A DNA stretch of 64,000 nucleotides from Okamejei kenojei (GCA_035221665.1 CM069138.1:71486001-71550000); one strand, 5' to 3'; shown: positions 1,913 through 57,681, counted from the stretch's first letter. Translations and numbers: made by a program. The notes: a model not told the origin generated them from the letters alone.

Positions 1913-2126
1913 TGTGTAGGAAGGAACTACAGTTACTGGTTTACACCAAAGATAAACAAAATGCTGGAGTAATCAACGAGTCGGGCTGCATCTCCGGAGA
2001 AAAAAAAATGGTGACATTTTGGGTGTGATGAAGGGTCTCGACCCAAAACCTCTCCTTTCCTATTCCTTTTCTCTGGAGATGCTGCCTGATCTCCTGAGTT
2101 ACTCCAGCATTTTGTGCCTATCTTCG
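1913..2126. mobile_element. PLE-derived fold-back element with degenerate hammerhead motif
   Basis: Inverted arms (aaaatgctggagtaatc...gcatctccggaga / tctggagatgctgcc...ttactccagcatttt) around tgatgaagggtctcgacccaaaac. Confidence 0.75.
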
Positions 2127-2749
2127 TTATTCTAAGTTCTCTCTGCATTATTGTTAAAATGGTTGTAAATACATGCACATCGGCAGGATGAGCGGCATCT
2201 GCGTCACTTTCAATTGCTTTTCCTTGGTGCATCTAGAGAAATTCTTCCTTTAATTGGCTGTTAAACACCTCACAGAGAAAGGCTTATGGTGAAAAACTAG
2301 TGAAAAACCATTGAGTTTAATAAATGGGTTGTTTTTCTGTGCTCCTAATCACTATTTGCCTAATTTGTAACTAATGGTTACCAATCTTGAACTTTGTCTC
2401 TCATCCCCTTTCTTGCATCCCGTCAACCTCCATTTCTTATTTGCAGAAAACAACTGCGCCTGAAAGTAAAAATTACCACAAGTTTACAAAACAGAAATGA
2501 TTGAGTGAACAAAAGCAATGACAGTCTGTTGAATCAGGTACCGGACAACCTAAAAGCTAACAATCAAAACTCCCACTGGCTGCAGTTCAAACCTATTTGG
2601 AATTGGAATGATGCATGGATCCAGTGCAGGCAATGTGTTCTCTAGACAAGCAAATACATTATTTGAATGTTAGTAGATAAAAAAGAACATTGATCTGTGG
2701 GGAGAGACACCTATAGTCAGAGACAGGAGGACCCTGTGAGGATCAGATG

Positions 2750-2976
2750 ATGTGTAGAAAGGAACTGCAGATGCTAGTTTACACAAAGATAGACAAAAAG
2801 TGCTGCAGTTACTCAACGGGTCATGCAGCATCTCTAGAGAAAAGGAATGGTTGATGTTTCACGTCAAGACCCTTCTTCAGATTGAAGATGGGCATTGAGC
2901 CGAAAGGTCACCTATTCCTTTTCTCCGTAGAAACTGCCTGACCCTCTGAGTCACTCCAGCATTTTGTGTCTATCTA
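2750..2976. mobile_element. PLE-derived fold-back element, hammerhead-like motif on both strands
   Basis: Left arm ends tttcacgtcaagacccttcttcag (antisense motif). Right arm starts ttgaagatgggcattgagccgaaaggtcacc. The arms are mutually complementary. Confidence 0.8.
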
Positions 2977-3129
2977 TGGGGAAGAGATGAGACTGGGGAA
3001 GAGAGAGCTGATGACTTGTTTGTGATCAGGCATGAGATCTCCCAACATAACCTAAAATTTGTTCTAACCAAAACAAAATTTACAAAACATTATGGCCTGT
3101 TCTGGGAGGGAGATACAGACAGTAGAGGC

Positions 3130-3330
3130 CTTAAGAACAGAGAAGGCAGAACAGTACATCAACATGGGAGCAGTCCCTTCAGCTCACATTATGCCAATCA
3201 TAATTCTCATCTAATTAATCCATCTGTCAGCATATGTTCCATATCCCTTTGTTAATGTGTCTGTCAAAATGTTTCTTAAATGTTGTTACTGTATCTGCTT
3301 CTGCGATCGTCTGCACCATCTCCACAAGTC
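3130..3330 (-). mobile_element. degenerate CR1/L2-type LINE 3' end
   Basis: Resembles the better-preserved minus-strand tail at 19125-19345 (gtcccttcagctca...ccatatccc...gtttcttaaatgt). Confidence 0.5.
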
Positions 3331-4618
3331 TCCAAGTCCCTCTTATGATGTGACCAGACCTGCATACAATAAACGGGCTTCTTTGACATAATCTTAAACT
3401 GATGTTATGACTCTGACCATATTGGATTGTGACTTTTTAATTTCAGCAAGTCTTCCGTGCTCCTAAATCTGTACCATTAAAATTATGCTACCAAAGAATA
3501 TAGTCAGTTGAAGTAAAGAACTGAACTTTTCAAATTTCAACATTTTCCATGCAGTGTCCTTGAAATAGAACTGGTGTTAAACTTTCAGCTCGAGTCTACA
3601 TGAGATTTACTTTCATGTATTGGTTTACTATTAACTTTCCAGAGAATTTTTCCAACTGATCACTTTCTTCTGATGGTTTATTTTAAACTCGGAGAATTTT
3701 TAAATATAAGTTAGTTGAACAAAAGACATCTTCACGTGTGTCTCTTTAACTCTGAGAGAATTATGAATAAGAAATGTACAAATAAAACACAAAATGATTG
3801 CACGTGAATTGGATTGACTGCTGTCCACCTTGCTGGTTTGTGTTGTCTACGTTGTGCCATCTATATTGGCAACTAACTTACCAAAATACTGAAGCACTTT
3901 CCTGAATGAATCCCTTTCATGACAGAATATAACCAATTCCATGTTGCATTCTTATGACAAAAATGTTCTTAGTAATTGCACGCTAGTATGTTTTTGTAAC
4001 ACTTAGCATTTTATCAAGAAGCTCTGTTTTTCTTAGAATGATGCCTGCCAATATTTTTTTTAATTAATTCCATAAAATTTATGGAGATTATACTTTGTTT
4101 CAGAAAATTTGGGAATTTTATACTTTAACATTTTTTTCAGTCATTTGGCTTGCAGTATAAACCTAATCAGAACTTTATATTCTTTTACGCATTGGATAAA
4201 CCTTTTGATATTTAAATTAAAACTAACATTCCAGTGATAACGAGAACAAGTGAGTAGTAAAGTGCATCCTTTTGATCTGTTCCAAGCATGTATTGTAAAA
4301 CAGTTTATTTTAGATAAGTGCATAGGAAAAATGAGATTTTATTTATATATTTGATAAGTGCGTTAATTGCATCGAGGCTATGAATGCTATCAGTGTGCTT
4401 TTCCTATCAGCATTTGAAAGCAATTCCACAAATTTAGTGATAATATTTTGAACTATATTTTTGCGCAACATTCATGTTTTGCCATTAGGTGCACAAGACC
4501 AGTCACTTTTGATAAGGCTAACGACTTGGAGTCTGCTGTCTGTGTTTTTGTTCGACAAATTAAAAAAGGAACAGTGACATGCCACACATATATAAGTGCA
4601 TTTTCAATTATGGCTCTA

Positions 4619-4772
4619 GAAACATAGAAACATAAAAACATAGAAAATAGGTGCAGGGGTAGGCCACCAGCCCTTCGAGCCAGCACCGCCATTCAATATG
4701 ATCATGGCTGATCATCCAAAATCAGTACCCTGTTCCTATTTTTTTCCCATATCTCTTGATTCCGTTAGCCAG
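4619..4772 (-). mobile_element. CR1-clade (HER1-like) LINE 3' end with TSD
   Basis: (agaaacat)n tail. Homologous to 41230-41370. 8-bp TSD tggctcta at 4611-4618 and 4773-4780. Confidence 0.8.
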
Positions 4773-5804
4773 TGGCTCTATGTGGATAATGTATGCACGT
4801 TTGTCAAGTCAAGATATTTCTCCTGCACTGGTACTTTTATACGATATTTAGACATTTAGGTAACTGATGCTTGTCGATGTTTTCAAAACTGAAGGGAGGC
4901 TTAGTCATATTTATATTATTTTAATTCTGAGTACTACATTAAATAAGTGATAGTACATCTGAAAAGTAACATTTAATTTTATTGCTATTCAATACTTCAC
5001 TAGAATTTTATGTTTTGTAAATGTCTTTAATCACTACACTATTGGTTAAATGTGTTCTCTTTTCAATTCATTCCCAACTAAATCCAAAAGCATTTGGTTA
5101 TTCTATCCACTGTAATCACGTGTATGGATGAATGCCAGGCTTTTATTTTCCATAAGATACAATTTTCTTCAGATGTCTGTATCATTTGAGACTTCAGTAG
5201 CATGTTTAATATTTTGCCTTTAAAATGGGAGCTGCATTAATCAACATTAATGAAGCTATTAATCAGGAGTGGTGAATGAATTTTGTTGATGGCATTAGGC
5301 AGAGGAGCAAAATCATTAAAATAAATGATGAACAACTGGGAAAATAGACCAGTGGGCTTGTTGAGGTTGGCTAACTTCTAGATGGAGCCCATCTTTGTCA
5401 GCAGTGGAGAGATACGGCTAGACAGTCAAAAGTTTGGCTGGGGCTGCAACAGATGATCGAATGTTTAAAATTGATCCCTCTGCAGACTCCAGGAACAAAA
5501 CAATGCAGTAGCTGCAACTCAATGATGAACAGCAATAGAAAAGGCCATATTCAAAATCATAAACAAAGTTTAATACCCTAGAAAACTATTGTTATTGAAC
5601 ACTTGATTTAACCATGTTCCAGTTCAATGCCCCGTGTCTTTTAGTGCGGGCAGAAGTATAAAAAAGGAGTAGACTTTACAAAGTAACTACAGTGAAGGGG
5701 TGAAGCTAATTTACCTGTTTTGCATCTTTAGTCATAGATGGTAATACAGTACAAGATCAGGTAGGGAGTAAACTTTGTACTACAAGCAATGAAAAAGGAT
5801 ATGG

Positions 5805-6055
5805 AGAGGAATTTCTATAGTCGGAGGGTAATGAATCTGTGGAATTTGTTGCTATAGACGGCTGTGAGGCCACTGATGGATATTTTTAAGGTAGAGATTA
5901 ACAGATGCTTGATTTGTAAAAGGGTCAGGCTTATGGGGATAAGGCAAGAGAATGGAGTTGAGAGGGAAATATCGATTAACCATGATTGAATGGTGGAGTG
6001 GATTTAATGGGCCGAACGGCCTAATTCTGCTGCTATAACTTATGAACCTATGAAC
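5805..6055 (+). mobile_element. CR1-clade LINE 3' end
   Basis: gagggtaatgaatctgtggaatt...ggccgaacggcctaattctgct...(tatgaac)n tail. Reverse homologue of 51965-52290. Confidence 0.8.
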
Positions 6056-7412: not shown

Positions 7413-7521
7413 ACAGTCTCCGTCTGAAGACTTAGTCTGAAGAAAGGTCTCGACCCGAAACGTCATCCACTCCTTCTATCCAGAGATGCGGCCAGAGTTA
7501 CTCCAGCATTTTGTGTCTATC
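7413..7521 (+). mobile_element. PLE-derived short element with the best-preserved hammerhead core; TSD-flanked
   Basis: CTGAAGA at 7437-7443, stem II ggtctcgacc, GAAACGTC at 7457-7464. 10-bp TSD ttaagtaaga at 7403-7412 and 7522-7531. Confidence 0.8.
7437..7464 (+). ncRNA. minimal hammerhead ribozyme-like motif (PLE type)
   Basis: All core nucleotides present: CUGAnGA, stem-loop II, GAAA, palindromic ACGU helix III, GUC cleavage triplet. Helix I pairing is very weak, so activity is uncertain. Confidence 0.6.
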
Positions 7522-9702: not shown

Positions 9703-9980
9703 AAGGGAGGCACAGTGGCACCTTGCATCGCCAGAGACTTGGGTTCGATCCTGACTATGGGTGTTATCTGTTCAGAGTTTTACGATCTCCCTCGCGGGTT
9801 TTCTCCGGGTCCTCCGGTTTTCTCTCACATTCCAAAGGCGCACAGGTTTGTGAGTTAATTGGTTTCTGTAAATTGTCGTCAGTGTGTCGGATAGAACTAG
9901 TGTACAGGTGATCGATGCTTGGCGTGGACTCTGTATGCCAAAGGGCCTGCTTCCATGCTGTATCTCTAAACTAAACTAAA
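9703..9980 (+). mobile_element. V-SINE (HE1-like)
   Basis: B box gggttcgatcc, V-domain-like core, (ctaaa)n tail. Confidence 0.85.
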
Positions 9981-10689
9981 AGTGAAGAGGTGGTGGTCAC
10001 AGCTGTACCATGCTTATTTATCATGAAGTGACCTGTGGTCAATGTCTCAGCTCCCAGAGCAGGAGAAGCAGAATCTACCTGCAGTGTAAGTCTTCCCCCA
10101 TAACCAGGGCACAGGGCTCAATGTGATCTTGGGATGAGAGGATGGGGGTGGCGAGACGCAACAGTTCAGCAATCTAACCTCCAGAGATGGAAGAAAGGCT
10201 ACTTTGGGGAAAGATAATGTCTTTGTGGATCATGAATTAACTGTTCTCCAGTCGGGTGATGAAGTTTGTGATCCTAGAACTTCTCCAGTGCCTTTTGTTG
10301 CAGCCAATTAACCAGACAGTCCAAATAGCTGCCGTCATGACATAAGGGCTGCCTACCTACAGGGCAGCTTGTGGTCTTCCTCCAAATCCACCTGCCCACT
10401 CTTTCTTTGTTAGCTATGTGGCTTCCAGCTGTCACCTGCATTTATCGGAGAGATTCTGCAATGAATTACCAGGCATTTCTTTCCAACCCAACTTTCTCAT
10501 ATGATGACATTTAAGGCAATTAGTTGATAATTGTATCAGTTTTGTTGAAGTTGGACTTTTTAGAGATGATTTGGAACATATATTTAGAATGGTTTTCTTT
10601 CAACGATATCAAGCACTTGCTAAGATGATCGGTAATAGATAATGGTAAAATAGAAAGAATTGAACTATTTTATTGAAATTGCACCTTGT

Positions 10690-10905
10690 TTAACAAACAC
10701 TTTGTACTTTGTTTGAGATACCATCCCAACTTCTGCTTCATTACTCTGTGCAACTCTGACAAGTCCTCCAACGATTGAACAATATTTCCCTGCCACAAAC
10801 CCTCCTTTGGGTCTGTCAGCAAGTGTGAAGAAGGGTCCCAACTCGAAAAACATCACCCATCCTTTTTCACCAGAGATGCTGCCTGACCCGCTCAGCTACT
10901 CCATC
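10690..10905 (+). mobile_element. PLE-derived 3' element with degenerate hammerhead motif
   Basis: gtgtgaagaagggtcccaactcgaaaaacatcaccc followed by ccagagatgctgcctgacccgctcagctactcc. Left boundary uncertain. Confidence 0.65.
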
Positions 10906-13900
10906 TTTACCACACTCCAATAATTGGGGTTCTATTTAACTAAAACAAGTGGGGGTGCCTTTCTGCAACCAAATGAACACCAGGATTTAGCTGTATAATT
11001 AGATCCAATCTGCTCACATCCACACTCTGCCTACCTTGCACATCAGTTACTGCTCACATCAATAAATGTGGTTGGGACTGGGAGCATAAAAGAATGTGCA
11101 TGTTGTGTTTAAATTTGAGCCAAAGCAGCATCTGTGATACCCGGACAACGGACGTTATGGAGCCCAGTATCATGCCCTGCAACTGTTAAGTTATTTAGGA
11201 TGATATGATTTGAACTGAATGCGAGTCCTATGTCAACGCAACTTAAGAGGCTTATTTCCCAAGCTGTTCTTTATTAGCTGAAATTATTGTCCACCAATGT
11301 GCATGTTACAGCTACACAGCATGCCACTGCCAGCGAAGAAATAAACAGCAGAAATTGCAGAAGCAACTCAAATAGCAGGGCATGGAGTTCAAATGCAAAA
11401 ATATTGGCAACTCGTTTTTGCAATACCTCCTACTGCAATAGAGGCATTTATTCAGGTACCCAATTACAGTAATGTGGTATGCAGTACGTACTGTAGATAG
11501 GTGTTTCTGCAGCATGCCAGAAGAAACAATTGTAATCCTTTAAATGCACTTAGGAAATTGATGTTACAGCCTACAATCTGTTGCCGGACTTGCTTCCTGG
11601 CTGATTGCAAGCATTTCTATCTTAATTGGATCACTGGAATGTGATCTGTATTTTGGTTTTAAGATTATGTAAGACTGTGACTTTGTTGTGACAGCCTAAA
11701 ACAGCTGCTGAATTGATGGATATTCTGACCCTTAATGTAGATAAGTGGTATTTGCAAATCTGTCCACATAGATCCTTGGAAAAACTGCTTAAAAAAGACA
11801 GTGTCCATCTTATGTAGGACCTTTAACTTAATTTTCATTTCTTTAATTTAATACCATTGCTACGCAGAACTACCATCGATCAGCCCAACAGATTCTGAGA
11901 TGAATTGTTTATTAATCCATTTTTAAATTGTACTGAAAGTGGATTTATAGCAATGACATTTTTATGGTATCGTATGTGGTATTTGGTTTAGTTTATAAGC
12001 TATATTGATTTTCTTACATCATCAGGCCCAAAAGGACAACATATGTCCAGCTATTATTAATATCACCCCCACAGCATAACTAGTCATGAAGTATACGATC
12101 GGTGTCAGAGTTAGATTTGTTTCTCATGTCTTATGCAGTTTTGTTAGGGCCGGATATTAACCTTGCCTATTATCATGTTTGAACAGAGGTATGTTCCAGT
12201 GTATGAAATAAAACTCACTGCTTGTTAATAGAATTTTGAAGAACTAAGAAGAAAACATCACTGCTGGAATTGTGAATGTGAAAAAGTTCATTTAACAGTG
12301 AGTTTCATTATGAAATACCAAGAATGAACCTGCATGTGTCATGCTTATTTACAGCCATGGGACAGAGAAGATGAATAGAACTGATAGGTTTACTCTTTAA
12401 GAGCTGGCATTGCCCCAATGGGCCAAATTGCCCTTTCTCTGCCTTAACAATCCAATATTTCTGTGAATAAAAATTACTCAAAAATATGATTTTGTGTCGC
12501 ACAAATCTGAAAAACTTTGAAGAGAAGAAGTAGCAATGAGATTGTACTCAAAACTGAAAGGAATGGTTTTTTTTTTGTCTTTTCCATTCAATCTGCCTTT
12601 GGCAACAGGTCCACATAAGAGTACCAGGTACTTTATTATTTTAAGGCCACTTTAAAATTAATAGACGGCACATTGGACACACTGCAACAATCAATTTAAC
12701 TGTAGACTTAATCTAAGATGCATAATTGTTATCAGGTTCCAATCCCTTATAAAATGTATTCCATTAAAAAATATTGATATGATTTGACTCCTTACCCTTG
12801 AAATTAGGCACTGTTATAAAAACGTGATAAAATAATCTGGGGAGCCAGGTGGTGATAGTTGACTGAAGTTTTTCATCGCCAGCCTGTTGTATATACAGTG
12901 CACCAACATCAAGGGCAATGCACATTTAGTCACATGAGGTTGCAAAAGGTGTGCTAAGAATGCCTTTGATAGTGTCCAAATGACTACCTTCCCTTCATCC
13001 TGCCCCAGGTCTAGCAAAGACTTTGCAATATTAAGAGCATAAGTGCAGAATGGTCAAAAGGTAGAAACAGAAGAAAAAGGCAACTTGTTATCAGATATTT
13101 AAATGATGGTATAATTTAATGTTATATGAAATATAGCTGAAGAAAGAGGAGACCAATTCTGCTCAAACATCAGAAAATAAATCCAGCAAATACTGTAGAA
13201 GCTGTGTGAAGCTCAGCTGCTGATTTGTAGCAGCAAATATCTTGGATAGTTGAGTTTTGTTGTGAGGTATTTTAGTCCATCAACATACTCGGTAAAATGG
13301 ATATTCCTGGTGTGATCCATATGTAACTTGGTGTCTGAAGGCCTTATCTTTAAGATTTTAGACCACCCTTCTTAATGGGTTCCCCTTATGGCAAATGTGA
13401 TAACAGGACAGGATGAATTGGTTGCCCTTGGTTTTACGAATCACCTCACTTTTTTTTATTTAGAAGGATGTGCAAGCTCTTGATTGTGTTACAGAGAGTA
13501 ATCACCTGTTTCTTCTTGCAGTAAATATATAGTTTTGTGGTTTTAAGTCTTGTAACTTATCCATTATTTAAACAATAACAGTTATATTTTTCTTTTGTGG
13601 TTCATATGAGGATTTTACTAATATTCCCAGTCTTTTTCTTGTCATTTCTTACAATGTTTCCATGTTTTCACTCTAAAGCAGTTTTATTGTTTTTTTGCAG
13701 ATGAATTAGAGTTAAATAATATAAATATAGTTATTCTATAAATTAATTAATATAAAATCAATTAATTTGCCTGTCATCAAACTAACAGTTTTTGTACTAG
13801 GTACAGGTGTTCAAATATTTTTTTTAACAGAAAGGGCACTCGCATTTTGATAAAATGCAGATCATATTAAGTCTAAATCAGTTTGCTATCAATTAAATGC

Positions 13901-14029
13901 AACTTTATTCTCTGGTGAGTAAGGTACCATTCATTCACCTGTAATGTTAACAACTAAATGATCAATAATCCATTGGATATGTCAGATTTGCCACACATGG
14001 GACAAATCTCATATATCCCTGTACCATCT

Positions 14030-14300
14030 GAAAATGGGCTTTGTCCCACCCAGTCTCTTTTCCAGTTTTCTCCCTCCCTTCTACAATGAGTCTGAAGAAG
14101 GGCCATGACCCGAAGCATCACCTATCCATGTCCTCCAGCGATCAGTCTGAAGAAGGATCTCAACCCAAAACGTCATCCATTCCTTTTCTCCAGAGATGCT
14201 GCCTGGCCCGCTGAGTTACTCCAGCATTTTGTGTCTATCCTCCAGAGATACTGCCTGACTTGCTGAGTCGCCCCAGCAGTTTGTGCTTTGATCTGAATCC
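14030..14300 (+). mobile_element. nested pair of PLE-derived hammerhead elements
   Basis: Motifs at 14092 and 14147. The inner copy 14143-14237 is flanked by tcctccag(c/a)gat at 14131-14142 and 14238-14249. Confidence 0.75.
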
Positions 14301-15174
14301 AGTAGCAGGCTTTAACTCCTTTCTAGATTATACATAAACTTTTTTAATGAGGTAAAGTGTTAAAGGTGTGGAAATAAAAGTGAGTTGTTTTTCTTTACCA
14401 TAAGGCCTGCAGAGTAGAAGCTTCAGAACGTGAATGAAGCTATTGCTAACACAAGGCTCGGTCGCCATTTTCCTGCGGGAGGAGAATCCCTGATTTCTTT
14501 GAAACATTATAAATCGCACTAAATAATTACATAATTATTTTATGGTCATTCTAGATGGAAAATATGCAAATTTCCTTGTCATGGTCTGCTACAGAAATAA
14601 ATCTTTGAACTTATTAACTTATACTATGATATGAGGAACATGACTGATCGCACCAACTAAATTTATGTAGAAAAATGATTCTACTAAAATGATTGTGCTA
14701 AGTAGTTTAAATTGCACTAATAAACTATTAACCAGATAATTCAGAGAGGATTTTTTTTTCCTTAAATGTGTAATAGCATGTAATAAATTTTCATTTTTTA
14801 AATTTGGTTTTCTGTTTTTAGTTTCACATTAATTTGGGATGAATAAAGCAATGGTATTGCCATTATTGGTTTATTTAATTATTTCAGCACAGTAATTTGT
14901 TTGAGTTAAGAACGTAAATAAATTTATATAACATTTAAAGATGTAATGATTGCAGCTTTTTTTTTAGATGGATGAAACTATAATATATTATGCCCAATGT
15001 TTTCTTTGGAAATTGCAAATATAAAGTATTCTGTTGCAGACATCAATCTATTAAAACAAAATACTGACTGGCATTTTATAATCTTAGAAAATTTAAAGTA
15101 AAGAAGAAGGCCATTTGATCTACTCTAAATATAATTACACTGACTAATCCCACCATCCAGCAATAACAAAGCAG

Positions 15175-15565
15175 ATCTCGGCTCACACCTCCGCTCAGTC
15201 CGTCTTAACATATCCGGTGGCCCAGTACTTTGACTACCCCTCCCATTCCCAATCTGACCTTTCTGTCCTAGGCCTCCTCCACTGTCAGAGTGAGGCCCAG
15301 CGCAAATTTGAGGAACAGCACCTCGTATTTCGCTTGGGTAGTTTACACCCCAGCGGTATGAACATTGACTTCTCTAACTTCAGATAGCCCTTGCTTTCTC
15401 TCTCCTTCCCCTTCCCAGTTCTCCCACTAGCCTTACTGTCTCCACCTACAGTCTATCTTTGTCCTGCCCCCTCCCCCGACAGTGTGAAGAAGGGTCTCGA
15501 CCTGAAACGCCACCCATTCTTTCTCTCCATAGATGCTGTCTCTCCCACTGAGTTACTCCAGCATG
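15175..15565 (+). mobile_element. Penelope-like retroelement 3' fragment (GIY-YIG C-terminus + 3' region with hammerhead motif)
   Basis: Coding remnant followed by a pyrimidine-rich tract, then gtgtgaagaagggtctcgacctgaaacgccaccc and the same tail as the short elements. Confidence 0.85.
15217..15387 (+). pseudogene. PLE GIY-YIG endonuclease C-terminal remnant
   Basis: Hand translation VAQYFDYPSHSQSDLSVLGLLHCQSEAQRKFEEQHLVFRLGSLHPSGMNIDFSNFR*. This matches the PLE pattern VA.HF...H...R...E...L..L.P.G.N. Upstream HLRSVRL is in a shifted frame. Confidence 0.85.
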
Positions 15566-15589
15566 TAGTTGAAGGTTTCTGTCTCTCTT

Positions 15590-17728: not shown

Positions 17729-18028
17729 CGGGCGGTGCAGCGGTAGAGTTGCTGCCTTACAACGCTTGTAGCGCCAGAGATACAGGTTCAATCCCCACTA
17801 TGGGTGCTGTTTTTGTATGGAGTTTGTACATTCTCCCCGTGACTGAGTGCGTTTTCTCCGAGATCGATTTCCTCCCACACTCCAAAGACATGCAGGTTTG
17901 CAGATTAATTGGCTTGGGTTTGCATACTTGGATAAAGTGTAAATTGTCCCTAGCTGTACGATGGTCAGCACAGACTCGGTGGGCCAAAAGGCCTGTTTCC
18001 GTGCCTAAACTAAATAAACTAAACTAAA
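17729..18028 (+). mobile_element. V-SINE (HE1-like)
   Basis: gcagcggtagagttgctgcc head, ggttcaatccc B box, V-domain-like core, (ctaaa)n tail. Confidence 0.85.
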
Positions 18029-20153: not shown

Positions 20154-20337
20154 CAAAAATACACAAACTATTTGAGTAACTCAGCATCTCTGGATAACAT
20201 GGACAGATGACATTTTGGCTTGGAACCCTCCTTCAGACCGAACGTCATCTCTGTTCTCCAGAGATGCTGCCTGACTCGTTGAGACACTCCAGCACTGAGT
20301 CTTTTTTGTAAACCAGCATCTGCAGTTCCGTGTATCT
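20154..20337. mobile_element. PLE-derived fold-back element, 12-bp TSD
   Basis: TSD aaagtttaaagg at 20142-20153 and 20338-20349. Inverted arms with remnant motif (accctccttcagaccgaacgtca). Confidence 0.8.
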
Positions 20338-20427
20338 AAAGTTTAAAGGATATGTGCAGGGCAAGTTTTTCTACACAGAGTGGTGAATGACTGGAACGTA
20401 CTGCCAGAGATGGTGAGGACTTGGATA

Positions 20428-37706: not shown

Positions 37707-37764
37707 CTAAGAAGCCCCACCTCACATTCCCATGAACTCCCCATGGTTTCTGCAACTCGTCCGA

Positions 37765-38476: not shown

Positions 38477-39867
38477 TGCATTTGTTCTTATTGCAAAGAA
38501 GATAGATATATTGTAAAATATTTTACCGTTCAGCACTATCATAGAAAGAAATTAAACATAAAATCTTATCTCCATTTGGCCAGTAACGAAGAGAGTTTTA
38601 AAAACAGTTTAGCATAAATATCCTTACATCACTGTGGGCAACCTCAGAGCTGTAACACATTGAATGGGTTGCAGTATCCATGTTCCACCTCTGAGGTCAG
38701 TATGCATTGACATGGATGAAGCTCCATCAATTCACCCTGGTTATTTTGACAGTTTACCTTTTGTATTATTTCTACAGTGCCCTGCCTAGCTCTGTCTTGT
38801 CTGTATGATTAAATTTGGCAGATGGCACTTTTCAGGCCAATAAATTAACACTGTGTTGAACTTTGATACGGTGTGTGGTGCAGGTTATAATTTAACAGTA
38901 CTTGCTGAGAACTCATTTTCAATTACGTTAAGTGTGATTGCGTTTCTTTTTTATTAATTTTGCCATAGTTTTAATTTTATAGATCTAATATACAGTATAT
39001 CTACTAGTTTAAAATTCTAATGTTTCATCTGTCGATTGAAGCACAAAATAGTGAAAGTAACTAAATCCAAAGCTGAGGACATATAAATTCCACAATATGT
39101 CACTTAAATTTGTAAATTTAGAAGTACTTGGATTAGTGAAGATTTGGAGTATCTAACACTTGGCTTGAGACTTGATTCTAAAGTTAAATATATTAAATGA
39201 ATTTGAGTGGAGAGAACTGGCAACTTCTAAGATGGCATAAAAAATCCTCCAGAACTGTCGAGATTTACAGCACATAAACCCACTCAGCTGCTTTTGCCTG
39301 TTGGCTTTGTGTCGGCTTGTTGGCTTCAGCAATCCAAAAACTAATCTCTCGTTCCACAGTTCTATTTGTTCTGGTGCATCAAAAATTTTTTTTCCAATTT
39401 TCCCTTCAAAGTTTCAGTAGTTTCTTCAAACTACTCACTTGCAGCAGAGTATGTGGTCTCCGTTTAAATAACTTCTGCCTGTTATCTTCATTTATTTGCT
39501 GTCAATTTTGAAATTTATTGATCCTTCGTGAATGATTCCACCGTCTCAGAAAATAATCTTTGCTGATTAGCTCTTTCCAAATTGTGGAAGAAAAATTGGC
39601 ACAGGGGCTAAATCTTCCATAAGCATGGATCTTACTCGTAGCATTTCTGCCTGTTACAACAAAGTCTCCATGGTCCTTGATCCCATGGTCAGTAATACTG
39701 CAGACTGGGCCCTGGTCAAATCCTTGCTACATGAACAAAGTCTGCTGATGTCCAAATCCCACTATTAGCACATTCTCAATGGGGCATTAAGGAGCGGATT
39801 CAGAGAGGTTTCTGAAATCTGTTTCCCTACCCTTGTTTATATGTAAAGAGTTAATCAACCTATTGGA

Positions 39868-40550
39868 GACATAAGAGATTGCAGATACTGGAATTTTGCA
39901 CAAAATCAAGCTGCTGAACAAACTCAGTGGGTTAGGCGGCTCGTTGCAGGAAAATGTTCGTCCAGCAGTCTGTTTGGATCCATTAGCACGTTTGTCGGAA
40001 CAAGTGTGCACAAAGTGGCCTTTGTTCTCCCAGTTGCCAATCAACCTCCCCCCCCCCCCCCCCCCGCCCTGACTTGTATCCACCTATCACTTGTCAGACT
40101 TTGTCCCACCCCCATTACTATTCTAGTCTCTTCCCCACCACCAAAATCAGTCTGGAGAAGCGTCTTTACGCTTTGGACTTTAAAGATACAGAGCGGAAAC
40201 AGGCCCTTCAGCCCATCAAGCCCGCACGGACCACTGATCCAGCATTAATAAACTGGCACTATCGTACACACTAAGGGCAATTTACAATTTTTAATGAAGC
40301 CAATTAACCTACAAACCTGTACGTCTTTGGAGTATGTGGGGAAACCGGAGCACTCAGAGAAAAACCCACGCAGTCGCAGGGAGAACGTTCAAACTCCGTA
40401 CAGACGGCACCTGTAGTCAGGATCGTACCCGGGTCTCCGGTGCTACAAGGCAACAACTCTACCGCTGTGCCATTGTCCCAACCCAAAACATTGCTTATGT
40501 TTTCCAAGATGCTGCCTGACTTGCTGAGTTACTCCAGCAGATTTGTGTAT
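39868..40550. mobile_element. PLE-derived element split by a SINE inside the hammerhead motif
   Basis: cagtctggagaagcgtc | SINE | cccaacccaaaacatt...gatgctgcctgacttgctgagttactccagca. Inverted left arm at 39870-39940. Confidence 0.7.
40165..40476 (-). mobile_element. V-SINE (HE1-like)
   Basis: Full-length reverse copy ending ggcaacaactctaccgctgtgcca. Confidence 0.88.
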
Positions 40551-41084
40551 CTTTTCAAAGATCGCTTTAACAATCATTTCCAGGTGAAATTGTGTACACC
40601 AGGAACTTGGGGGAGGTACATTTGTACACAATTCACCCTAGCACAGCTGATCTTTTCCTCTGTGTCAGTTAGTCATCTAATAACATCACAAGAAGCGTTT
40701 CCTACATTGTCGACATCAATTGAAGCTCCTGGCTGCAGCCTATAATTTGCGCTGAACACTCGCGATGCAACTAGAATTGGTGCTTTGTAGCATTTGTATC
40801 CATTTGCAAAGGGAACTCTGCAGACTGCTGGAGATCTAACTGGGCTCACTGCAGGCTCTCCAAGCATCTTCCAAAGTCTGCAGAATGTGGTTAATCCAAC
40901 AGGGTGTGTTTCTTATTTCAGCATTTAGTGGTTCCGTTGGTTCAAGCACCTGTACAGTGGTCAGTTTATATCTGCACCTAGAAGAATGTAATTTTAACAT
41001 GACTAAAAAACCATTTCAACCAGACTAGAATTTAGAACTAATTAAGGCAGGAAAAAAAAAAAAACAAATGTAGGGAGTCATAAT

Positions 41085-41226
41085 GTAGAAACAAGAAACC
41101 GCAGATGCTGTTACCTAAGAAAATAACAAAGTCTGAAGAGGTGTCCCCACGCAAAACAATATCTATTCATGTTTTGCAGGAATGCTGCCTGATGTGGCCT
41201 GACCTGCTGAATATTTCCAGCATTTT
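41085..41226. mobile_element. PLE-derived short element
   Basis: gcagatgctg...gtctgaagaggtgtccccacgcaaaac...tgctgcctga...ttccagcattt. Confidence 0.65.
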
Positions 41227-42080
41227 AGACAATAGACAATAAGTGCAGGAGTAGGCCATTCGGCCCTTCGAGCCAGCACCGCCATTCAATGTGATCATGG
41301 CTGATCATCCCCAATCAGTACCCAGTTCCTGCCTTCTCTCCATATCCCCCGACTCCACTATCTTTAAGAGCCCTATCTAGTCTCTCTTGAAAGTATCCAG
41401 AAAACCTCTGAAACCTCAGAATTCTCTGCCTCCACGGCAGAGAATTCCACAGACTCGCAACTCTCTGTGAGAAAAAGTGTATCCTAGTCTCCGTTCTAAA
41501 TAACTTACTCCTTATTCTTAAACTGTGGCCCCTGGTTCTGGACTCCACCAACATCAGGAACATGTTTCCTGCCTCTATCGTGTCCAAACCCTTAATAATC
41601 TTATATGTTTCAATAAGATCCCCTCTCATCCTTCTGAACTCCAGAGTGTACAAGCCTAGCCACTCCATTCTCTGAGCATATGACATTCCCGCCATCCCGG
41701 GAATTAACCTTGTAAACCTACGCTGCACTCCCTCAATAGCAAGAACGTCCTTTCTCAAATTAGGTGACCAAAACTGCACACAATACTCCAGGTGTGGTCT
41801 CACTAGGGCCCTGTACAACTGCAGAAGGACCACTTTGCTCCTGTACTCAACTCCTCTTGTTATAAAGGCCAACATGCCATTCACTTTCTTCACTGCCTGC
41901 TGTACCTGCATGCTTATTTTCATTGACTGATGAACAAGGACCCCCAGTCCCGTTGTACTTCCCCTTTTCCCAACTTGACACAATTGAGATAGTAATCTGC
42001 CTTCCTGTTTTTGCTACCAAAGTGGATAAGCTCACATTTATTCACATTAAACTGCATCTGCCATGCATCCGCCCTGTCCA
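41227..42080 (-). mobile_element. CR1-clade (HER1-like) LINE, 5'-truncated, relatively young
   Basis: The 222-aa ORF 41315-41983 contains LYRALVRPHLEYCVQFWSP, VQRRFTRLIPG, RGDLIETYKI and TRGHSLR. The upstream frame has WQMQFNVNKC..IHFG. (tagacaa)n tail. Confidence 0.95.
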
Positions 42081-42600: not shown

Positions 42601-42923
42601 CATGGACAAGGAGCTGCAGATGCTGGAATGATGAGTAACCCAGTGAGTCAGGCAGCATTTTTGGAGAACATGGACAAACAACTTTTCAGGTCGGGAAAGG
42701 ACACAAAGTGCTGGATTAACTCAGCCGATGAAGCAGCATCTCTGGAAAACATGACTACACAAAAGGACATAAAATACTCCCGAGATGTTGTCTAGAGGTG
42801 CTGCCTGATCTGCTGAGTTACTCCAGCACTTTCTGTCCTTTAGTGTATTAATCTGCATCTGCAATTCCTTGATTCTACATTTCAGTTAAGGACCCTTCTT
42901 CGGACTCCATCACTTTGTGTTTT
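42601..42923. mobile_element. nested PLE-derived fold-back elements, 11-bp TSD
   Basis: TSD aaagaagtgtg at 42590-42600 and 42924-42934. An inner copy (about 42697-42879) interrupts the antisense hammerhead motif. Confidence 0.75.
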
Positions 42924-44339: not shown

Positions 44340-44437
44340 TAAGATCAAGAGTCGAGGGTTTTTACAGACAGACATATATCCCGAAACGGAACAATAAAAT
44401 TCTTACTTGCAGCCAGCACAACAGATATGTAAACATA
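44340..44437 (-). mobile_element. short Rex/L2-type LINE 3' tip
   Basis: ggaacaataaaattcttacttgcagccagcacaacag, similar to 7180-7210. Confidence 0.45.
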
Positions 44438-44623
44438 AGATAGACACAAAAAGCTGGAGTAACTCAGCGGGACAGGCAGCATCAGAAGGGTCATTCTTCA
44501 GAATAGCCTCGACCTGAAACGTCACCCATTCCTTCTCTCCAGAAATGCTGCCTGTCCCGCAGAGTTACTCCAGCTTTTCGTGTCCATCTTCAGTTTAAAC
44601 CAACATCTGCAGTTCTTTCTTAC
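44438..44623. mobile_element. PLE-derived fold-back element, 17-bp TSD
   Basis: TSD acagatatgtaaacata at 44421-44437 and 44624-44640. Near-perfect arms aaaagctggagtaactcagcgggacaggcagcat / atgctgcctgtcccgcagagttactccagctttt. Contains ctcgacctgaaacgtcacc. Confidence 0.88.
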
Positions 44624-47600
44624 ACAGATATGTAAACATAGTACTCGGAGGTTTCAATGGACTCCCTGAGCATATAAAAAATGACACTTTGCTCGTAACT
44701 GGAGCTTCACTTCAGCGAGTGTGAAATTCAAATAAAGCGTGGTTACTCATTGGTTCTGATTTCACATCTTTTTCTTCCATCTGTCTGTGAATCAGGTGCT
44801 AATCCGTGTCCTGAGTAATGTCGGAACTACTGTGACAGCGTGCACTTATAACCGTTTTGCATTGCTGCTAAAATGCCAGTTTGAAGTTCCGTCAATTCAC
44901 CACAATAGTTTCAAAAGTTTGAGGTGGCTTCTTAATGATTTCAATAAATGTAATTATATTTTAAAACCTCTCAAAAAAAGCATGTGTCTTTATATCAAAA
45001 CCATACGTACTACAAATAGTAACATGAACAATAATATATATGTTAATGTGAGCTTTACAAATAATAATTGATTGTATGGATGTAAGCAAAAACTTTTACC
45101 AAATACAATAGTTGGCACTTTCAGCAGCTTTTGACTCCCTGCATGCCAAGTACCTATAATCATACAGTTAACTGTAAATATTAGTCCCTTTCATAAAATG
45201 TAATTGACTGTTACTTTTGACGATCACCACTGGAGTTCCACTAATAGGTAATCTCTTAACGTTATTGGAAACAAAGTGATTTTCAGGTTTATTGTAAATC
45301 TAGGAATTAAAGCCGCAAAATTAAGTCATCGTTCCCCCTGCGTCTCACTGAAATAATCGGCAATTTGATGTTTCTCTAAATATAATGCAAAGTCGGCTTC
45401 TGCTTAGATATAAAATTATGGGACTCTTATAAACTATCAATCTCGCAGACCTACCCAAATAGAAGAGACGATTTGAATAGCTGTTTCTTGATCAAGTAAC
45501 TCGAAAATGCTTAAATATGTATATTGCTTGAGAGAAATGCAGGATATGCCCAGAGTTGGTTAAAAAAAAAAAGGCTGACGCTCACATGATGGACAGAAAA
45601 TGGACTTGTGTGAGATACAGGAGCCAGCAAGGACTTTAGATGGAAATCTGCACTGTCAGGGTGGAACGAAACAAACACACAATTAGAATTGTCAAGTAAG
45701 AGTATCCACATGCACAGTGAAGTTCTACAATAAACAGCCATTGTCGATAATTACAGTTATAAATACGTGTACTGTTTCAATTCCAGGATTTCGGAATATT
45801 AGGAAAACCATTATGTCTTCATTTTTTTTTGAGAGGTAACAACTTTGATAAAAATGCACATTCTTTGAAAGCTTTTTTTTAAAGCAGAAACGTTCAATGC
45901 ATTAAAAACATATATTTTGCAACTCATAAGTGAGCCTTTGCACCAATAATGTATTTGCTGGGCATTTTGACATTGTTGAAGGTCAGTAATAATAAGAAAT
46001 ATTGATACAGTTCAAAACTTTTGAAAATACTTATTGCTCAAGACAATTGCTTTTTGGGCTGGAGCATGAAATTCCATGCATTCTCCCTTGTATTGAATAG
46101 ACCTGTATAAACGATCAAAAGCATAAAAGGTTAAAGTTAGAACACTGTGCAAGAAACTTTAATGGCATTTTCTTGTAGAACACTTATTCAGTGGGTGGAG
46201 CATTGGTGACTGCATGAATGCTCTGCAGTTCACTGTGAGTATTGAACTGACAAGCTTTATATGGGATTAACAGAGAAACCCTAGAATTTGAGTGTTGTTT
46301 ATCATTTTAAAAGAGTCAAATGCTTTTATTGTTGTGGGTGATTAGGGTTAATTTGGATTTGCTTGATCTTTTTCCAGAATTCTCTTATTCTTAATTCTGC
46401 GGCAACTGTCATGCCAAAACGCTTCATTGTACATTGTACATTGGCCCTTTCAGTGCATATTGTTATGTGATGCAATCAGGCTCTGTGGTGTACAGATAAA
46501 TGCCTGTTTAATATTGCAAGCCAAGTTGCAAAAATAGCTTTTAAATCAAAACTACAGTATGACTTTTCAGATTTGCTGCTAAACCTGAAACTCCTTTTTC
46601 AGGGCAGATACCTTTCCATTCTGGTCGATTGGAGCTGCTTGAGCTGTTTATACAGTGGTCTCTCTATATTTATCCCATTATACAATGGTTGCACTCACTG
46701 AATTGAACTGGTGAGAAACAACTTACATTGGCCAAACTAATTAAAGATATTTTAATTGTATTACTTTAAATGAAATATTGAACTGTTTGAAAAATATTCA
46801 TAATCTATGAGGCATTATTTTGTGTTTTTTTATTTTAATTTTGCTCGTTTTCTATATTTTCCTGCAATGTTGTATATTGATGGAGCTTCTGTGATCATGA
46901 AACATCATAACTTGAACAACTTGATGCTGGCAAGGTAAACAACGGTGGTTTTTCTGTGAGCTGATGTGGTTCTCTCCCCTTATCCATCTTCGTACAATTT
47001 CAAAGTTTATTTTTTTTATATATTTCCCTGTAAACATTTATCTTAAAAATGATTCATTATATAAATAATAATTGCTGATCAAACAATTCTTGCTTTGAAC
47101 TAACAAATTAATTCAAGCATTTTTTTTTTTTTTAAATAAACTTTAGATAAGCTTTAAAAAATCGTAAATCCAATTTATACCAGGAGTCAATCGACAAATT
47201 TAAAAAAATAACTAAATGGTCTACATTACGGTGTTAAAATTTGGCCTGACTTACCATCATTTCCTCTTTGATGTGTGATCCATCAAGTTAACCATGAATG
47301 GCAAATAAAGGAATGTAGGCTTCCAGTACATTAAGAGTTCATGTTGCACCTTTCAAACTTGTTTCACCTTTCTCAGCCATGCCCAAATCTCTATTGACAA
47401 TACAAACATTGGCTGCTGTTTGGGAGGCTCTTGATTATTGACCCAAAGGTTACAGGAAGGTGCCAAGATAGTTTTAACATCTAGTGCCAAAGAAGGAGGG
47501 CATTTCTCCACGCTTGAGGTCACTTCCATAAACCAGAGAGAATAATTTAGCAACTGCAGTCAACAACTTGGAGCCAATTAAATCTTATTGCCCAAGATGT

Positions 47601-49552: not shown

Positions 49553-49802
49553 GAGGTGTAGTGGTGCAATTGTAGAGCTGCTGCCTCACAGCACCAGTGA
49601 CCCTGGTTCGATCCTGACTACATGTGCTGTTTGTTCGTTCTCCCTGTGACTGTGGGTTTACTCCCACATCCCAAAAACGTGTAGGTTTGTAAATTTCTCA
49701 TGTGTGTAGGGAGTACCGAGAAAGTGTGAATAGGTGATCGATGGTCAGCGAGGACTCAGTGGGCCGAAACGTCTGTTTCTATGCTGTATCTTTCAATCAA
49801 TA
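49553..49802 (+). mobile_element. V-SINE (HE1-like), internally deleted
   Basis: gtggtgcaattgtagagctgctgcctcacagc...ggttcgatcctgac...gtgggccgaaac...ctgtatctttcaatcaa. Confidence 0.82.
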
Positions 49803-50544
49803 GAGACACAAGATAATCCTACATTCTAAATGGTCACAGGCAAGAGATTCATCAGAATGAGTAAGGATCTTTCAGTTTTTCATGGAGATTTTAAAACCTC
49901 CTCAAAGTGTTTTCTCTGTCCTCCTGGAAATCTCTTGCCATGATGGAGCATGGAGTAGAGAGCATGTATTAGGCATGTGGATCATATGCCTATACATTAG
50001 CATGTGTGAGGAAACAGGCCTTACTCCATTTATCTACCCTGCCAATTCATTTGGAGGATTGTACAAAAATCCTCCAAATGAAGGATTTCATTTGTAGGAT
50101 TCAAATTTGGAGTGTACCTGGCGATACTGCTCCAATTCATTGAGGTATCCATTACAATGTTTAAGGTTTTAGTCATTGAACACCATTTTCCTCAGTCAAC
50201 TGAAGGCTCTCTAGCACATCGGTGGGACCTTGATCAACACTTGACTGAGAGGTCACTCCTGAGCTTTAGAAGTTATCATTGTTTCCCTGATTATGGACCA
50301 TTATTGGATGGGACAGTTTCTCAAGCAGTAAGCTGTTATACCCTTTCACCTGTTTAACTCCTTACTTTCTTTAATGCAACTATGCGCAGGTGTCAGTTGA
50401 AATCAGGCATCACACAGCAAAAAATATCAAGTATCAGGAGAAAATCCCCTTTTATTCCGAAAATAGTGAAAATACAAAACACACTATTCAAAGGAGTTGT
50501 TGATTTTAAGGCCATAAAAGAGAAGGGAATGGAAGGAAATGGTG

Positions 50545-50990
50545 ATAGATTCAGAAAACAACAAACACTCAGCAGGCCATGTAGCCTATGTGAGAAAAAC
50601 CACATTTCAAATCTGGGGCTCTTCATCGGAACTGGGAAGGAGGCAAAGCATGTTAGTTTTCACTAGCAGAGGAGGTGGGGGAGGAATGGTGAGAACAAAG
50701 GGAATATCTCTGATAAGAGTGACCGATGACCTAATTTAGTTCTTATTATATCAAAGATATTCTCTTTGTTCTCGCTGCCCACCCCCACCCACCCCCTTCC
50801 TCCAACACTGCCGAACCCTCTCTGCCACTGAAAACAAACTTGTTCCTCTCCTTTCCAGTCCTGATGAAGAATCCCAAACCTGAAACGTCAGATTCTCTTT
50901 CCACAGATGCCGCCGGACTGGCTGAGCTTTTCTTTTAGCATTTTTTATTTTTATTTCTGATATACAGCATCTGCATTTTCTCTTTTATTT
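50545..50990. mobile_element. long (~440 bp) PLE-derived palindrome with hammerhead-like motif on each arm
   Basis: Left arm acatttcaaatctggggctcttcatcggaactggga...gagaacaaagggaatatctctgata. Right arm tatcaaagatattctctttgttctc...ttccagtcctgatgaagaatcccaaacctgaaacgtca. Confidence 0.75.
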
Positions 50991-51964
50991 TGATACTGTG
51001 ATAGAGGTAGGTGAGGAAGGATGGGAGTGGGGCAATGAACCAGTGGGGCAGAGTGTTTTTCTGTGCTGTACATTTTAAGTAATCAATGTAAAGTTGCATC
51101 ACCATCAATAGCATTGATCCATAAATGAGTGCTCTATATTTAAAGACTCCAGCATATCCTTGGGAGAGTTATATCTGTATTCTGTGCATTTGTATGCAGT
51201 GCATAGTAAAATTCCTCAAAACAGATTTTTAGATGTTCACAGTCACAGTGGTGCTATTTTGTGTTGAAAGTTAAAATCTGCACTCTATTATCTTCATATC
51301 TAATTTCACACATAATTTAGATTTTCTTACTTCAAGAATGTAAGCACAGTGGAGAATTGGTCAACTCTCTTATTGCCCGTTGCCACCTTACATAGATTTG
51401 TATTGTCAGACAAATGGGGCCTTTGAACATATAGTAATGGCCTTGTACATATAGTAATGAGTACAAGGCCATAGGAAAAAAAACATGCAGTTGTATCAGA
51501 ATGAAGTAAGCTGCCATTTGAAACCACTTAAAATGTCAGTGACTACATTAAAGCTACCTAAAAATTGATTTTTATTTTGTACCAGGTGACTTAATAAAAC
51601 TTTCTTTTCTGCTTTCCTTCTTTCCGCCTCACATTACAACTGTAAAAAGATTGTCATTTAATACATCCAAAGAAGTTGAAAAGGTTAATTGATTTCTTCA
51701 ATAAATATATACAAGGTGATCCAAGTCGGAAACTATTGTATTTTCTGTATTCCTTCCTCCCATTAATGGGGGTTGTCTTGTCCACACCCACCCAATATCA
51801 CATGCTGCATATCTTTTTACCGACTTCCATCTGAGTGAAAAACATATTTTGCCTCCAACCATTGATCACAAATTCACCACTGTTATAGAGAAGCATGCCA
51901 TATATAATAAGTTCTAATATCAAAACTATATTTTAATATCCTTTCTTCTAAAGCATTTTTGCTT

Positions 51965-52290
51965 TCACAAGTTCTCAAGTTATATGAATAGAATTAGGCC
52001 ATTCGGCCCATCAAGTCTACTCTGTCAGTCAATCATGGCTGATCTCTGCCTCCTAATCCCATTTTGATACCTTCTCCCCATATCCCTTGACACCTATTCC
52101 AATCAAGAATGTGTTTATCTCTGCCTTAAAAATATCCACTGATTTGTCTTCCACAGCCCTCTGTGGCAATGAGTTCCACAAATTAACTACCCTCTGACTA
52201 AAAAAGTTCCTTTCTAAAAGAGCGCCATTTAATTCTGAGGCTATGACCTCTGGTCCTAGACTCTCCCACCAGAGGAAACTCCCACCCACC
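51965..52290 (-). mobile_element. CR1-clade LINE 3' end
   Basis: ORF 52053-52289 contains FFSQRVVNLWNSLPQRAVE..SVDIFKAEI..FL...GVKGYGEK. Confidence 0.88.
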
Positions 52291-56323: not shown

Positions 56324-56360
56324 GTGTGTGTCTGTGTGTGTGTCGGATGGTCTGTCTGTC

Positions 56361-56393
<33 letters not shown>
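56324..56393. repeat. (TG)n microsatellite
   Basis: Direct observation. Confidence 0.95.
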
Positions 56394-56395
<2 letters not shown>

Positions 56396-56710
56396 ACAGA
56401 CTGCCCCCGTACATCCACATTCAGGCCACATTTAGATCATGTGGATGTGGCAAGCCCTCCTGCCAGCATTACCACACTACATGCAGGGGTTTGGAGAATG
56501 GTAAAGTGGACTTCTTGAATGTGCAAAATGTCAAGTTCTAAAATAACTTCCAGTCTGCTGAATTGGCCTGATTTACTTGACTTTTCCCTCACTGCCCTTT
56601 CTGTCTCAACTTATTCGGCTCTGATAACTACAGTCATTAGCTTAACTGCTGTGTTATCTGCTTTCTTCAACTCGGCTGGGTACTTAGTGACTGACCAGTT
56701 GTTTAAGTGA

Positions 56711-56870
56711 TGTTTAAGAAAGAACTGTAGATGCTGGAAAAATCGAAGGTGAAGTTAGACCCAAAATGCTGAGTAACTCAGTGGGTCAGGCAGCATCCCT
56801 GGAGAAAATGGATAGGTGACGTTTTGGTTCGGGACCCTTTTGCGGACTGGTCCTGACCCAAAATATTCTT
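56711..56870 (-). mobile_element. PLE-derived element, 15-bp TSD
   Basis: TSD cagttgtttaagtga at 56696-56710 and 56871-56885. Antisense motif ggtgacgttttggttcgggacccttttgcgg. Confidence 0.82.
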
Positions 56871-57481
56871 CAGTTGTTTAAGTGAGTTGGGCAGAAGGTG
56901 TATTCCACTTTCCACAGTACAGTTTTAAATTTGTTTTATTTACATGCAAAATGCCATAGAAATACCAGTTATTGTGTCCGATGTATGTTTTAATCTACTA
57001 TTGAATTATTATTTGAGGATTGTCCATTGCTTCTCTTCCCAGAAAATAAAAAACATATACATATGTACAACTAATAAAATCTTTTAAATTTAGTTTAATT
57101 AAATTGAACATTACAATATTTTTTTTTCATCTGGTCCCAAGAGATGATAATGTCTGAACTGATTTTATCCATTTGGTTTAATCTGATCTATACTCTATTT
57201 GAGAAAGAACTTCATAATTTTAAATCCAGTCTCATGAGCGTGCCCGTTTTAAATAGGTTGTGACTGTTATATGGCACTAAACAGGGTAGAGGACAGTGTA
57301 AACATAGGTTTCTGTGGGATTGGGGATCACAATGAGTTTACAACTTGTACAGTAATTAAGGGGAGAATATCATCATGATGGTTTTGATGCCCGCTCAGAC
57401 ATGAGAAGGTTGAGAACATTGGGTAGGGGCTGGGGCAAGTCCAACACTACCTCCCTGAAGATAATCACAAAGATATTAAAA

Positions 57482-57681
57482 CGAAAATGCTGGAGTAACA
57501 CAGCAGGTCAGGCAGCACCTCTGGTGATGTTTTGGTCGAGACCCGAGTCTGAAGAAGGGACTTGACCTGAAACGTCACCTATTAATTTTCTCCAGAGGTA
57601 CTGCCTGACCCACTGAGTTACTTGAGCATTTTGTATCTATCTTCGGTATAAACCAGCACCTGCAGTTCCTTCCTACTACAT
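57482..57681. mobile_element. PLE-derived fold-back element with hammerhead-like core in the loop, 9-bp TSD
   Basis: gtctgaagaagggacttgacctgaaacgtcacc between inverted arms. TSD atattaaaa at 57473-57481 and 57682-57690. Confidence 0.82.

Follow-up and report, generated by a model that had tools for sequence, protein, structure and literature searches.

Decayed, often mirror-image terminal pieces of a Penelope-like retrotransposon in a 64-kb window of the skate Okamejei kenojei

Minimal hammerhead ribozymes (min-HHRs) occur genome-wide, mostly as solo copies attributed to truncated Penelope-like elements (PLEs), and dual min-HHRs lie on opposite strands 100-700 bp apart (PMC4209133). In PLEs, a 'tail' of 30-40 bp often extends one end only of the element (PMC8557442; PMC3846280); in vitro it lies between two internal start sites of the reverse transcriptase (RT), and PAc, an element of Anolis carolinensis, uses AT-rich targets, is extended from both strands and employs uncleaved RNA (PMC11167929). 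Tandem retrozymes, including those of one chondrichthyan, are described as derived from the pseudo-long terminal repeats (pLTRs) of such elements (bioRxiv 10.64898/2026.07.22.740005), and both the origin of inverted pLTRs and the role of the hammerhead in PLEs are stated as open (PMC8557442, PMC11167929). Here, we analyse a window of 64,000 nt from the skate Okamejei kenojei (GCA_035221665.1 CM069138.1:71486001-71550000; positions count from its first letter) that is rich in short, hammerhead-like repeats. These are decayed, often mirror-image terminal pieces left behind by an early-stopping Penelope-like retrotransposon whose behaviour is largely known, and the positions at which they start and fold back hint at how PLEs insert. 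No description of this skate family was found in the literature searched, a weak negative as subscription journals were missing from it, and the family has likely been annotated as Penelope before.

An iterated nhmmer profile returned 31 arm pieces in 20 clusters and its tail-extended version 37 matches, 35 of which were retained as arm pieces once two weak ones, at 40913 (E=0.28) and 56841-56867 (E=0.16, realignment failed), had been discarded. The 37 aligned pieces add up to 3110 bp (4.9% of the window), and neither the reversed window, put through the same profile searches, nor an exact-pattern scan for stray copies in bacterial and archaeal genome contigs gave a single match. The pieces make up ~20 loci, about one per 3 kb, all built on a common unit of ~135 nt; the count of about 18 copies in a first-pass annotation of the window is correct after merging interrupted pairs. 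As that annotation also saw, head-to-head inverted pairs are frequent, with ten loci of this kind (A, 1913-2122; B, 2752-2974; G, 20154-20337; J, 31518-31898; L, 41084-41226; N, 44438-44623; O, 50567-50987; P2, 54727-54903; Q, 56711-56870; R, 57482-57681) next to one tandem (E, 14030-14306, +) and one complex insertion (M, 42601-42923). The recognisable motif it ascribed to many copies stands insofar as 15 of 35 arms cover the whole core, but just four places come within 3 edits of it.

Numbered from an A that precedes the first hammerhead box by three bases, the unit opens with a hammerhead-like region (model positions 4-31) composed of two core boxes, an extra base, a helix II of 4-5 bp and the remnant of a palindromic helix III, and continues with a body that reaches ~96 and an extension that reaches ~131-135; an ATG in the body opens just a short frame that stops in the tail. 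Copies fall into two 3' end classes (~96 or ~131-135), 36-43 nt apart in the five arms measured, which we attribute to the published PLE tail, as which we read the 3' extension, and to dual RT start sites. Inverted pairs carry the extension on one arm only and, where clean, share a single architecture of an antisense tail-less arm plus a sense tail arm, the tail-less arms of L, O and P2 being shortened by decay or other insertion. Beyond the tail, the ends displayed have no 3' sequence in common. Ahead of each 3' end point lies a similar 7-mer, both copies of which can pair with 52-58 (stretches involved: model 51-58, 78-84 and 105-113, e.g. 57596-57662); folding favours 51-58 with 106-113 as a possible RT-positioning structure. 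Separately, the target duplication shares ~8 nt with the tail end at Q (56696-56720) and ~3 nt at N (44421-44440 / 44615-44640), an overlap that suggests priming microhomology in some insertions.

The link to a PLE is provided by locus F (15388-15566, +), a pLTR preceded by the family's sole open reading frame (ORF) remnant in the window, the C-terminal end and stop of a GIY-YIG endonuclease (15214-15387, +) that its relatives would place as Neptune-type. The coding match (15214-15384) is 75-79% identical to the C-termini of Leucoraja erinacea and Rhinoraja longicauda proteins, though Pfam returned no match for the 57- and 79-aa remnant; its stop (15385-15387) is followed by a 96-nt pyrimidine-rich spacer, the 3' untranslated region (UTR), and then by the hammerhead-like core (15484-15511) and the body. 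Hence the earlier claim that motif and tail sit directly downstream of the remnant stands for the core, 96 nt behind the stop, but not for the tail, as the copy ends near 15566 without a true one. Among 233 relatives found at E<=0.001 in a protein library-wide search, 150 of them listed, 14 were scanned and nine gave GIY-YIG, mostly below the Pfam cut-off, four of these (P0053, P0107, P0108, P0133) together with RVT_1. An upstream CX2-5CxxC linker is present in 15 of 30 matches of at least 140 aa with a GIY-YIG motif, among the matches listed, and also in the close skate relative P0003. Such a linker is described as the mark of Neptune and Nematis, Penelope and Poseidon being without it (PMC8557442). 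Since the unit starts 96 nt past the stop of a GIY-YIG ORF, we read it as the pLTR of a Neptune-type PLE, the clade being assigned through relatives, and the PLE origin proposed in the first-pass annotation thereby gains support from an endonuclease C-terminus upstream of the unit and relatives with RT, linker and GIY-YIG. Searching the window by tblastn with all fetched relatives of at least 200 aa, long Neptune relatives included, revealed no PLE RT piece outside 15100-15500, and a search for the 3' UTR elsewhere in the window matched solely the two arms of O to each other. The RT of the top match P0001 was considered as PLE evidence and rejected; it matches a LINE (long interspersed element) fragment of the window instead. 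The skate gene models P0001-P0003, one of them named neuromedin-U receptor 1, terminate in the PLE endonuclease C-terminus, probably through mis-annotation or exonisation.

Target site duplications (TSDs) bear on how the units arrived. All six direct repeats proposed earlier are exact: 10 bp at 7403/7522 around the tail-less monomer C (7413-7521, +; model 1-96 plus a 21-nt 5' piece repeating part of its start), 12 bp at 20142/20338 (G), 11 bp at 42590/42924 (M), 17 bp at 44421/44624 (N), 15 bp at 56696/56871 (Q) and 9 bp at 57473/57682 (R). With 400 random flank pairs as a null, the best exact repeat reached at least 9 bp three times and at least 10 bp once, so the five repeats of 10-17 bp lie clearly above it. 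As a TSD the 9-bp repeat is doubtful, since family-like sequence runs on across its left copy and past it. A seventh TSD of 13 bp with one mismatch (54606/54714) surrounds the arm P1 (54619-54713, -). The TSD search covered 22 boundary sets and found nothing beyond the null in 15, the pairs A and B having no significant TSD. AT content is 76% across the six claimed repeats and 61% across the window (p=0.006), and the TSDs of PLEs in A. vaga measure 8-10 bp (PMC3846280). Variable in length and AT-rich, the duplications do carry the signature of retrotransposition, as the first-pass annotation held, rather than that of a miniature inverted-repeat transposable element (MITE).

The 5' ends of the units are not random either, as that annotation had surmised: they recur near model +1, just as the 3' ends recur at ~96 or ~131-135. 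By hand tally, 17 arms reach the first positions, of which four enter the pyrimidine-rich upstream stretch, 11 abut another piece of the unit and two have unassignable flanks. Judged by the consensus patterns for initiators and splice acceptors, the boundary is initiator-like in two of the four genuine upstream contexts and resembles a pyrimidine tract with an AG acceptor in all four. A common short exon upstream of an AG before the core was not seen in 17 upstream contexts, nor was an extra G opposite a cap evident by eye at the 5' junctions. An intron end at helix I is described for Drosophila virilis (PMC4209133) and a start site inside the pLTR for PLEs (PMC8557442); on the window evidence, +1 may equally be a transcript start, a splice site or an RT stall.

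As for the ribozyme, the family majority sequence retains core boxes, helix II and palindromic helix III, with 75% of helix II cells paired, so the minimal hammerhead ancestry proposed earlier is borne out. Individual copies have lost it: none of 12 full arms combines an intact core with helix II, a generic, relaxed min-HHR descriptor run over the window picked up no family copy, and Rfam, searched with all of the window at E<=5, gave 11 weak matches but no hammerhead family. The catalytic G12, which lies in a CpG, is an A in 9/24 arms, next to 6/22, 6/25 and 7/30 for other CpG Gs. Helix covariation does not rise above shuffles (66/500 as high), and the folded family profile sequence (z=+1.0) does not adopt the hammerhead as its monomer minimum. 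The source elements, then, had a hammerhead and their copies decay neutrally. Most arms run past the predicted cleavage site and nothing points to a template cleaved at the ribozyme or to a tandem retrozyme organisation. The TSD-bounded arm P1 (54606-54726 region) starts 1-3 nt after that site and the short arm of Q (56849-56870) ends nearby; a rare use of cleaved RNA is possible at these two. An old subfamily copy (31772-31812, -) has a possible 5-bp helix I with 4/5 pairs left, and young subfamilies have 2 bp by the core.

Whether the pairs descend from a fold-back master can be read from their junctions, nine of which we decomposed in a common orientation: A (2-5|19-22), B (4-6|1-3), G (2|24), J (9|1), L (2|85), N (multi-piece), P2 (22-24|1-4), Q (13|1, its top-scoring fit being rejected by eye) and R (11|1). 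By locus, the tail arm (-) of A starts at model ~19-22 and its tail-less arm (+) at ~2-5, both arms of B start at ~1-6 with the tail on the left arm only, and G (whose second breakpoint lies at ~22-24), N, P2 (an older pair, ~22-24|1-4) and R carry the tail on the right side. The old-subfamily pair J folds near 31813, with a tail arm apparently interrupted by another repeat (~31602-31749) and a (-) arm (31772-31812) that was read by eye where the profile did not find it; another repeat adjoins the right end of L; and Q joins a full tail arm (-) to a 22-nt inverted piece (model ~13-31). Outside the nine, O is an old, long fold-back with a right-side tail whose arms reach ~110 nt further upstream into the pyrimidine-rich UTR before folding near 50740, and M is a complex insertion that switches several times, its pieces, about six in number, lying in both orientations. 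No two junctions are letter-identical, ungapped identity being at most 0.63 over 45 pairs. Minority variants are shared more often by arms of one locus (21/173 variable sites) than by arms of different loci (370/6799; pairs not independent), C35, C43 and T63 are common to the short pair N and the ORF-linked pLTR F, and inverted pairs were made by several subfamilies, old and young. Thus a discrete non-autonomous fold-back family, as the first-pass annotation had in mind, is not supported, as junctions are not shared between loci bar one ambiguous pair (A/G).

We consider it probable that the loci are dead products of separate insertions, 5'-truncated and twin-primed, by autonomous PLE subfamilies of the Neptune type. 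In such a scenario, the GIY-YIG endonuclease (EN) would nick both strands of AT-rich DNA ~10-17 bp apart, which would produce the TSD, and RT would start within pLTR RNA at one of two sites ~35-40 nt apart, giving a tail-less or a tailed 3' end, and usually halt at or inside the hammerhead, near the 5' boundary of the pLTR. If both nicks were primed, one per start site, two short cDNAs, often matched through a short complementarity within the hammerhead, could be joined head-to-head into an inverted pair with a one-sided tail; the rarer longer copies F, O and E may reflect the same process running further upstream. The two-nick step is akin to L1 twin priming except that here both arms copy the same sequence, so that two pLTR templates would be needed. 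The window itself shows the anatomy, the TSDs, the two kinds of 3' end, the asymmetry of the tails, the diversity of junctions and the neutral decay; the two internal RT starts, the cutting and extension of both strands and the uncleaved RNA template are taken from the literature on a Poseidon-clade rather than a Neptune element, and twin priming, like the +1 boundary as transcript 5' end or RT stop, is what we infer from the two combined.

Several findings weigh against this scenario. Coding sequence accompanies just 1/20 loci, tblastn with the long Neptune relatives gave no RT piece, and of the 17-18 arms that get as far as model +5, 11-12 end within 8 nt (hand tally; crude constant-hazard p~2e-10; as the profile was seeded at the +1 boundary, only abutting junctions were counted), a pile-up more skewed than smooth 5' truncation predicts. 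Junctions also cluster: A, G and P2 use one short complementarity, J, Q and R fold at (9-13|1), and both breakpoints lie within positions 1-24 in 7/9 pairs. The junction of A comes within two score units for G, so the two may be the same after decay; given that their subfamily markers differ and that P2 employs this complementarity with roles swapped, we read the likeness as a hot spot. Outside CpGs, the pooled core is slightly better preserved than the body (203/222, or 91%, vs 1217/1417, or 86%; p=0.025), a body figure that includes subfamily differences. Paired within arms, the core is not significantly better conserved (p=0.23), which, like the largely unshared junctions, is an outcome that the first-pass annotation had named as speaking against its proposal. 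Furthermore, mobilisation in trans is reported to need nothing in cis but pLTRs, a host gene having been mobilised in A. vaga (PMC3846280), and our sample is a single 64-kb window with a poorly resolved, weakly supported arm tree.

We regard as unlikely a view in which solo source copies would give rise to a discrete non-autonomous, SINE-like (short interspersed element) RNA of ~135 nt, from pLTR start to tail, for PLE RT/EN to mobilise in trans, with inverted pairs arising per insertion. It would account for ends that recur on both sides and for a ratio of short to ORF-linked units of ~19:1, and pLTRs do contain promoters and are able to bring about mobilisation in trans (PMC8557442, PMC3846280). 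The end points, however, would be the same if they reflected the 5' end of an autonomous mRNA; N matches the ORF-linked F at subfamily markers (albeit with one ORF-linked copy and a weak tree), old and young subfamilies alike give short units, and O and E extend upstream. Moreover, the Anolis element requires RNA ~55 nt 3' of the RT start (PMC11167929), whereas the ends displayed have no common sequence 3' of the tail. Doubtful, too, is an option in which the hammerhead serves as an RNA-pairing and RT-stop device rather than as a cutter: two pLTR RNAs might be paired via palindromic helix III, a dimeric RT/EN might prime one per staggered nick at the two start sites, and both cDNAs might come to a halt, and be joined, where the ribozyme is paired or the transcript has its 5' end. 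If true, this would account for one-sided tails, the +1 pile-up and the junction clustering in 7/9 pairs, and the dominant mobile unit of the genome would then be a ~135-nt pLTR leader, perhaps SINE-like in being transcribed alone as well.

Amplification of one or a few fold-back dimer masters as a unit, the proposal of the first-pass annotation, fits the single architecture of all clean pairs, the colinearity of A/B and of N/R over 200+ bp and the A and G junctions, compatible within decay; yet we hold it to be very improbable, as junctions are otherwise unlike, A and G carry different subfamily markers, the tail-less arm has its outer end at the first RT start site, where independent priming would put it, and variants are shared by arms within a locus. 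Even harder to credit is a non-LTR retrozyme, whose RNA, a monomer or a circle, would be processed by the hammerhead and inserted in head-to-tail arrays. Type I hammerheads and descent from a PLE pLTR would speak for it, as would the retrozymes reported from one chondrichthyan (bioRxiv 10.64898/2026.07.22.740005), the partial tandem E, the start of P1 1-3 nt past the predicted cleavage site and the end of the short Q arm near it. But arrays of complete hammerhead-to-hammerhead units are missing, E consisting of partial units with non-intact cores, the two ribozymes of an inverted pair cannot share one RNA strand, and most arms read across the cleavage site with no intact ribozyme copy. A discrete SINE- or retrozyme-like fold-back parasite, as suggested earlier, is not supported. 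Finally, short inverted structures with flanking repeats, in the vicinity of Tc1-like elements, might recall a MITE of DNA-transposon origin with terminal inverted repeats that happen to look like a hammerhead; with asymmetric arms, monomers and tandems present, and excluded by variable TSD length and direct linkage to the PLE endonuclease ORF, this has practically nothing left to recommend it. Independent insertion of early-stopping, twin-primed PLE copies is therefore the reading that we retain.

The other loci are simpler. D is a monomer (10822-10908, +; model 1-85), H a monomer split by a CT-rich simple repeat (22763-22924, -) and I a tailed, 5'-truncated arm (30646-30728, +; model ~44-133), while K (39866-40551) comprises a (-) tail arm (39866-39953) and a (+) tail-less arm (40475-40551) with a SINE-like repeat between them, their pairing being uncertain. 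P1, a tail arm from model ~33-35, just 3' of the predicted cleavage site, is inserted into P2, and the partial head-to-tail tandem E runs from a pyrimidine-rich lead through model 1-54, 1-96 and ~43-112.

The window also holds repeats of other kinds. Two decayed DNA transposons (20425-22015 and 25927-27541), mutually inverted, 83% identical over 1575 bp and with ~230-bp terminal inverted repeats, match DDE_3 and HTH_32, which suggests Tc1/mariner. A ~300-bp SINE-like family with a B-box-like motif, which may resemble the HE1 SINE of sharks and rays, occurs at 682-997, 9721-9981, 17738-18024, 23685-23986, 29609-29924, 37408-37960, 40179-40480 and 49584-49806. The C-terminal fragment of a LINE RT, presumably CR1-like, lies at 41247-42063 (-) with a 232-codon open frame, shorter 3'-end copies being found at 4654, 8020, 5804-6054 and 51964-52214. 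A 305-bp duplication of 89% identity (30774-31072 and 32736-33040) flanks a degenerate TG-rich simple repeat (32086-32600). No tRNA gene was found in the window, and 150 of 226 stop-to-stop frames of at least 62 aa, when scanned against Pfam, revealed no convincing host exon.

About 5% of the window is thus terminal debris of a PLE, which could be mistaken in annotation for a MITE, a SINE or a retrozyme. At one short insertion per ~3 kb, the genome would offer junctions and end points by the thousand and, with them, a direct test of twin priming and of a ribozyme-linked RT stop.

Compared with known systems, the family is closest to Neptune-clade PLEs, for which a C-terminal GIY-YIG domain followed by a hammerhead pLTR, inverted partners, a 30-40 bp tail at one end, partial tandems and variable TSDs are all described (PMC8557442, PMC3846280). 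It departs from them in that nearly all insertions are the terminal ~100-135 nt only, with RT and linker absent from the window. With metazoan min-HHRs of PLEs it shares the core boxes, the extra base before helix II, the G-C at the foot of helix II, the palindromic positions 15-16 without a loop 3 and the mostly solo occurrence with some opposite-strand pairs (PMC4209133). Helix II, however, has 4-5 bp here and 7-8 bp as reported for Schistosoma in the same source, just 2 bp of helix I adjoin the core in the young subfamilies and, unlike min-HHRs, no copy in the window is intact. The two 3' ends and the tail are as dual RT starts define them in PAc, which also has AT-rich targets; this Poseidon element belongs to a different PLE clade and its ORF starts within the hammerhead, whereas the body ATG gives a short frame only (PMC11167929). 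Like non-LTR retrozymes, finally, the units are non-coding, of type I hammerhead and related to pLTRs, yet retrozymes are described as head-to-tail arrays with a complete ribozyme per unit and circular RNAs (PMC7229834; bioRxiv 10.64898/2026.07.22.740005), while the loci of this skate window are solo or inverted and carry dead ribozymes.

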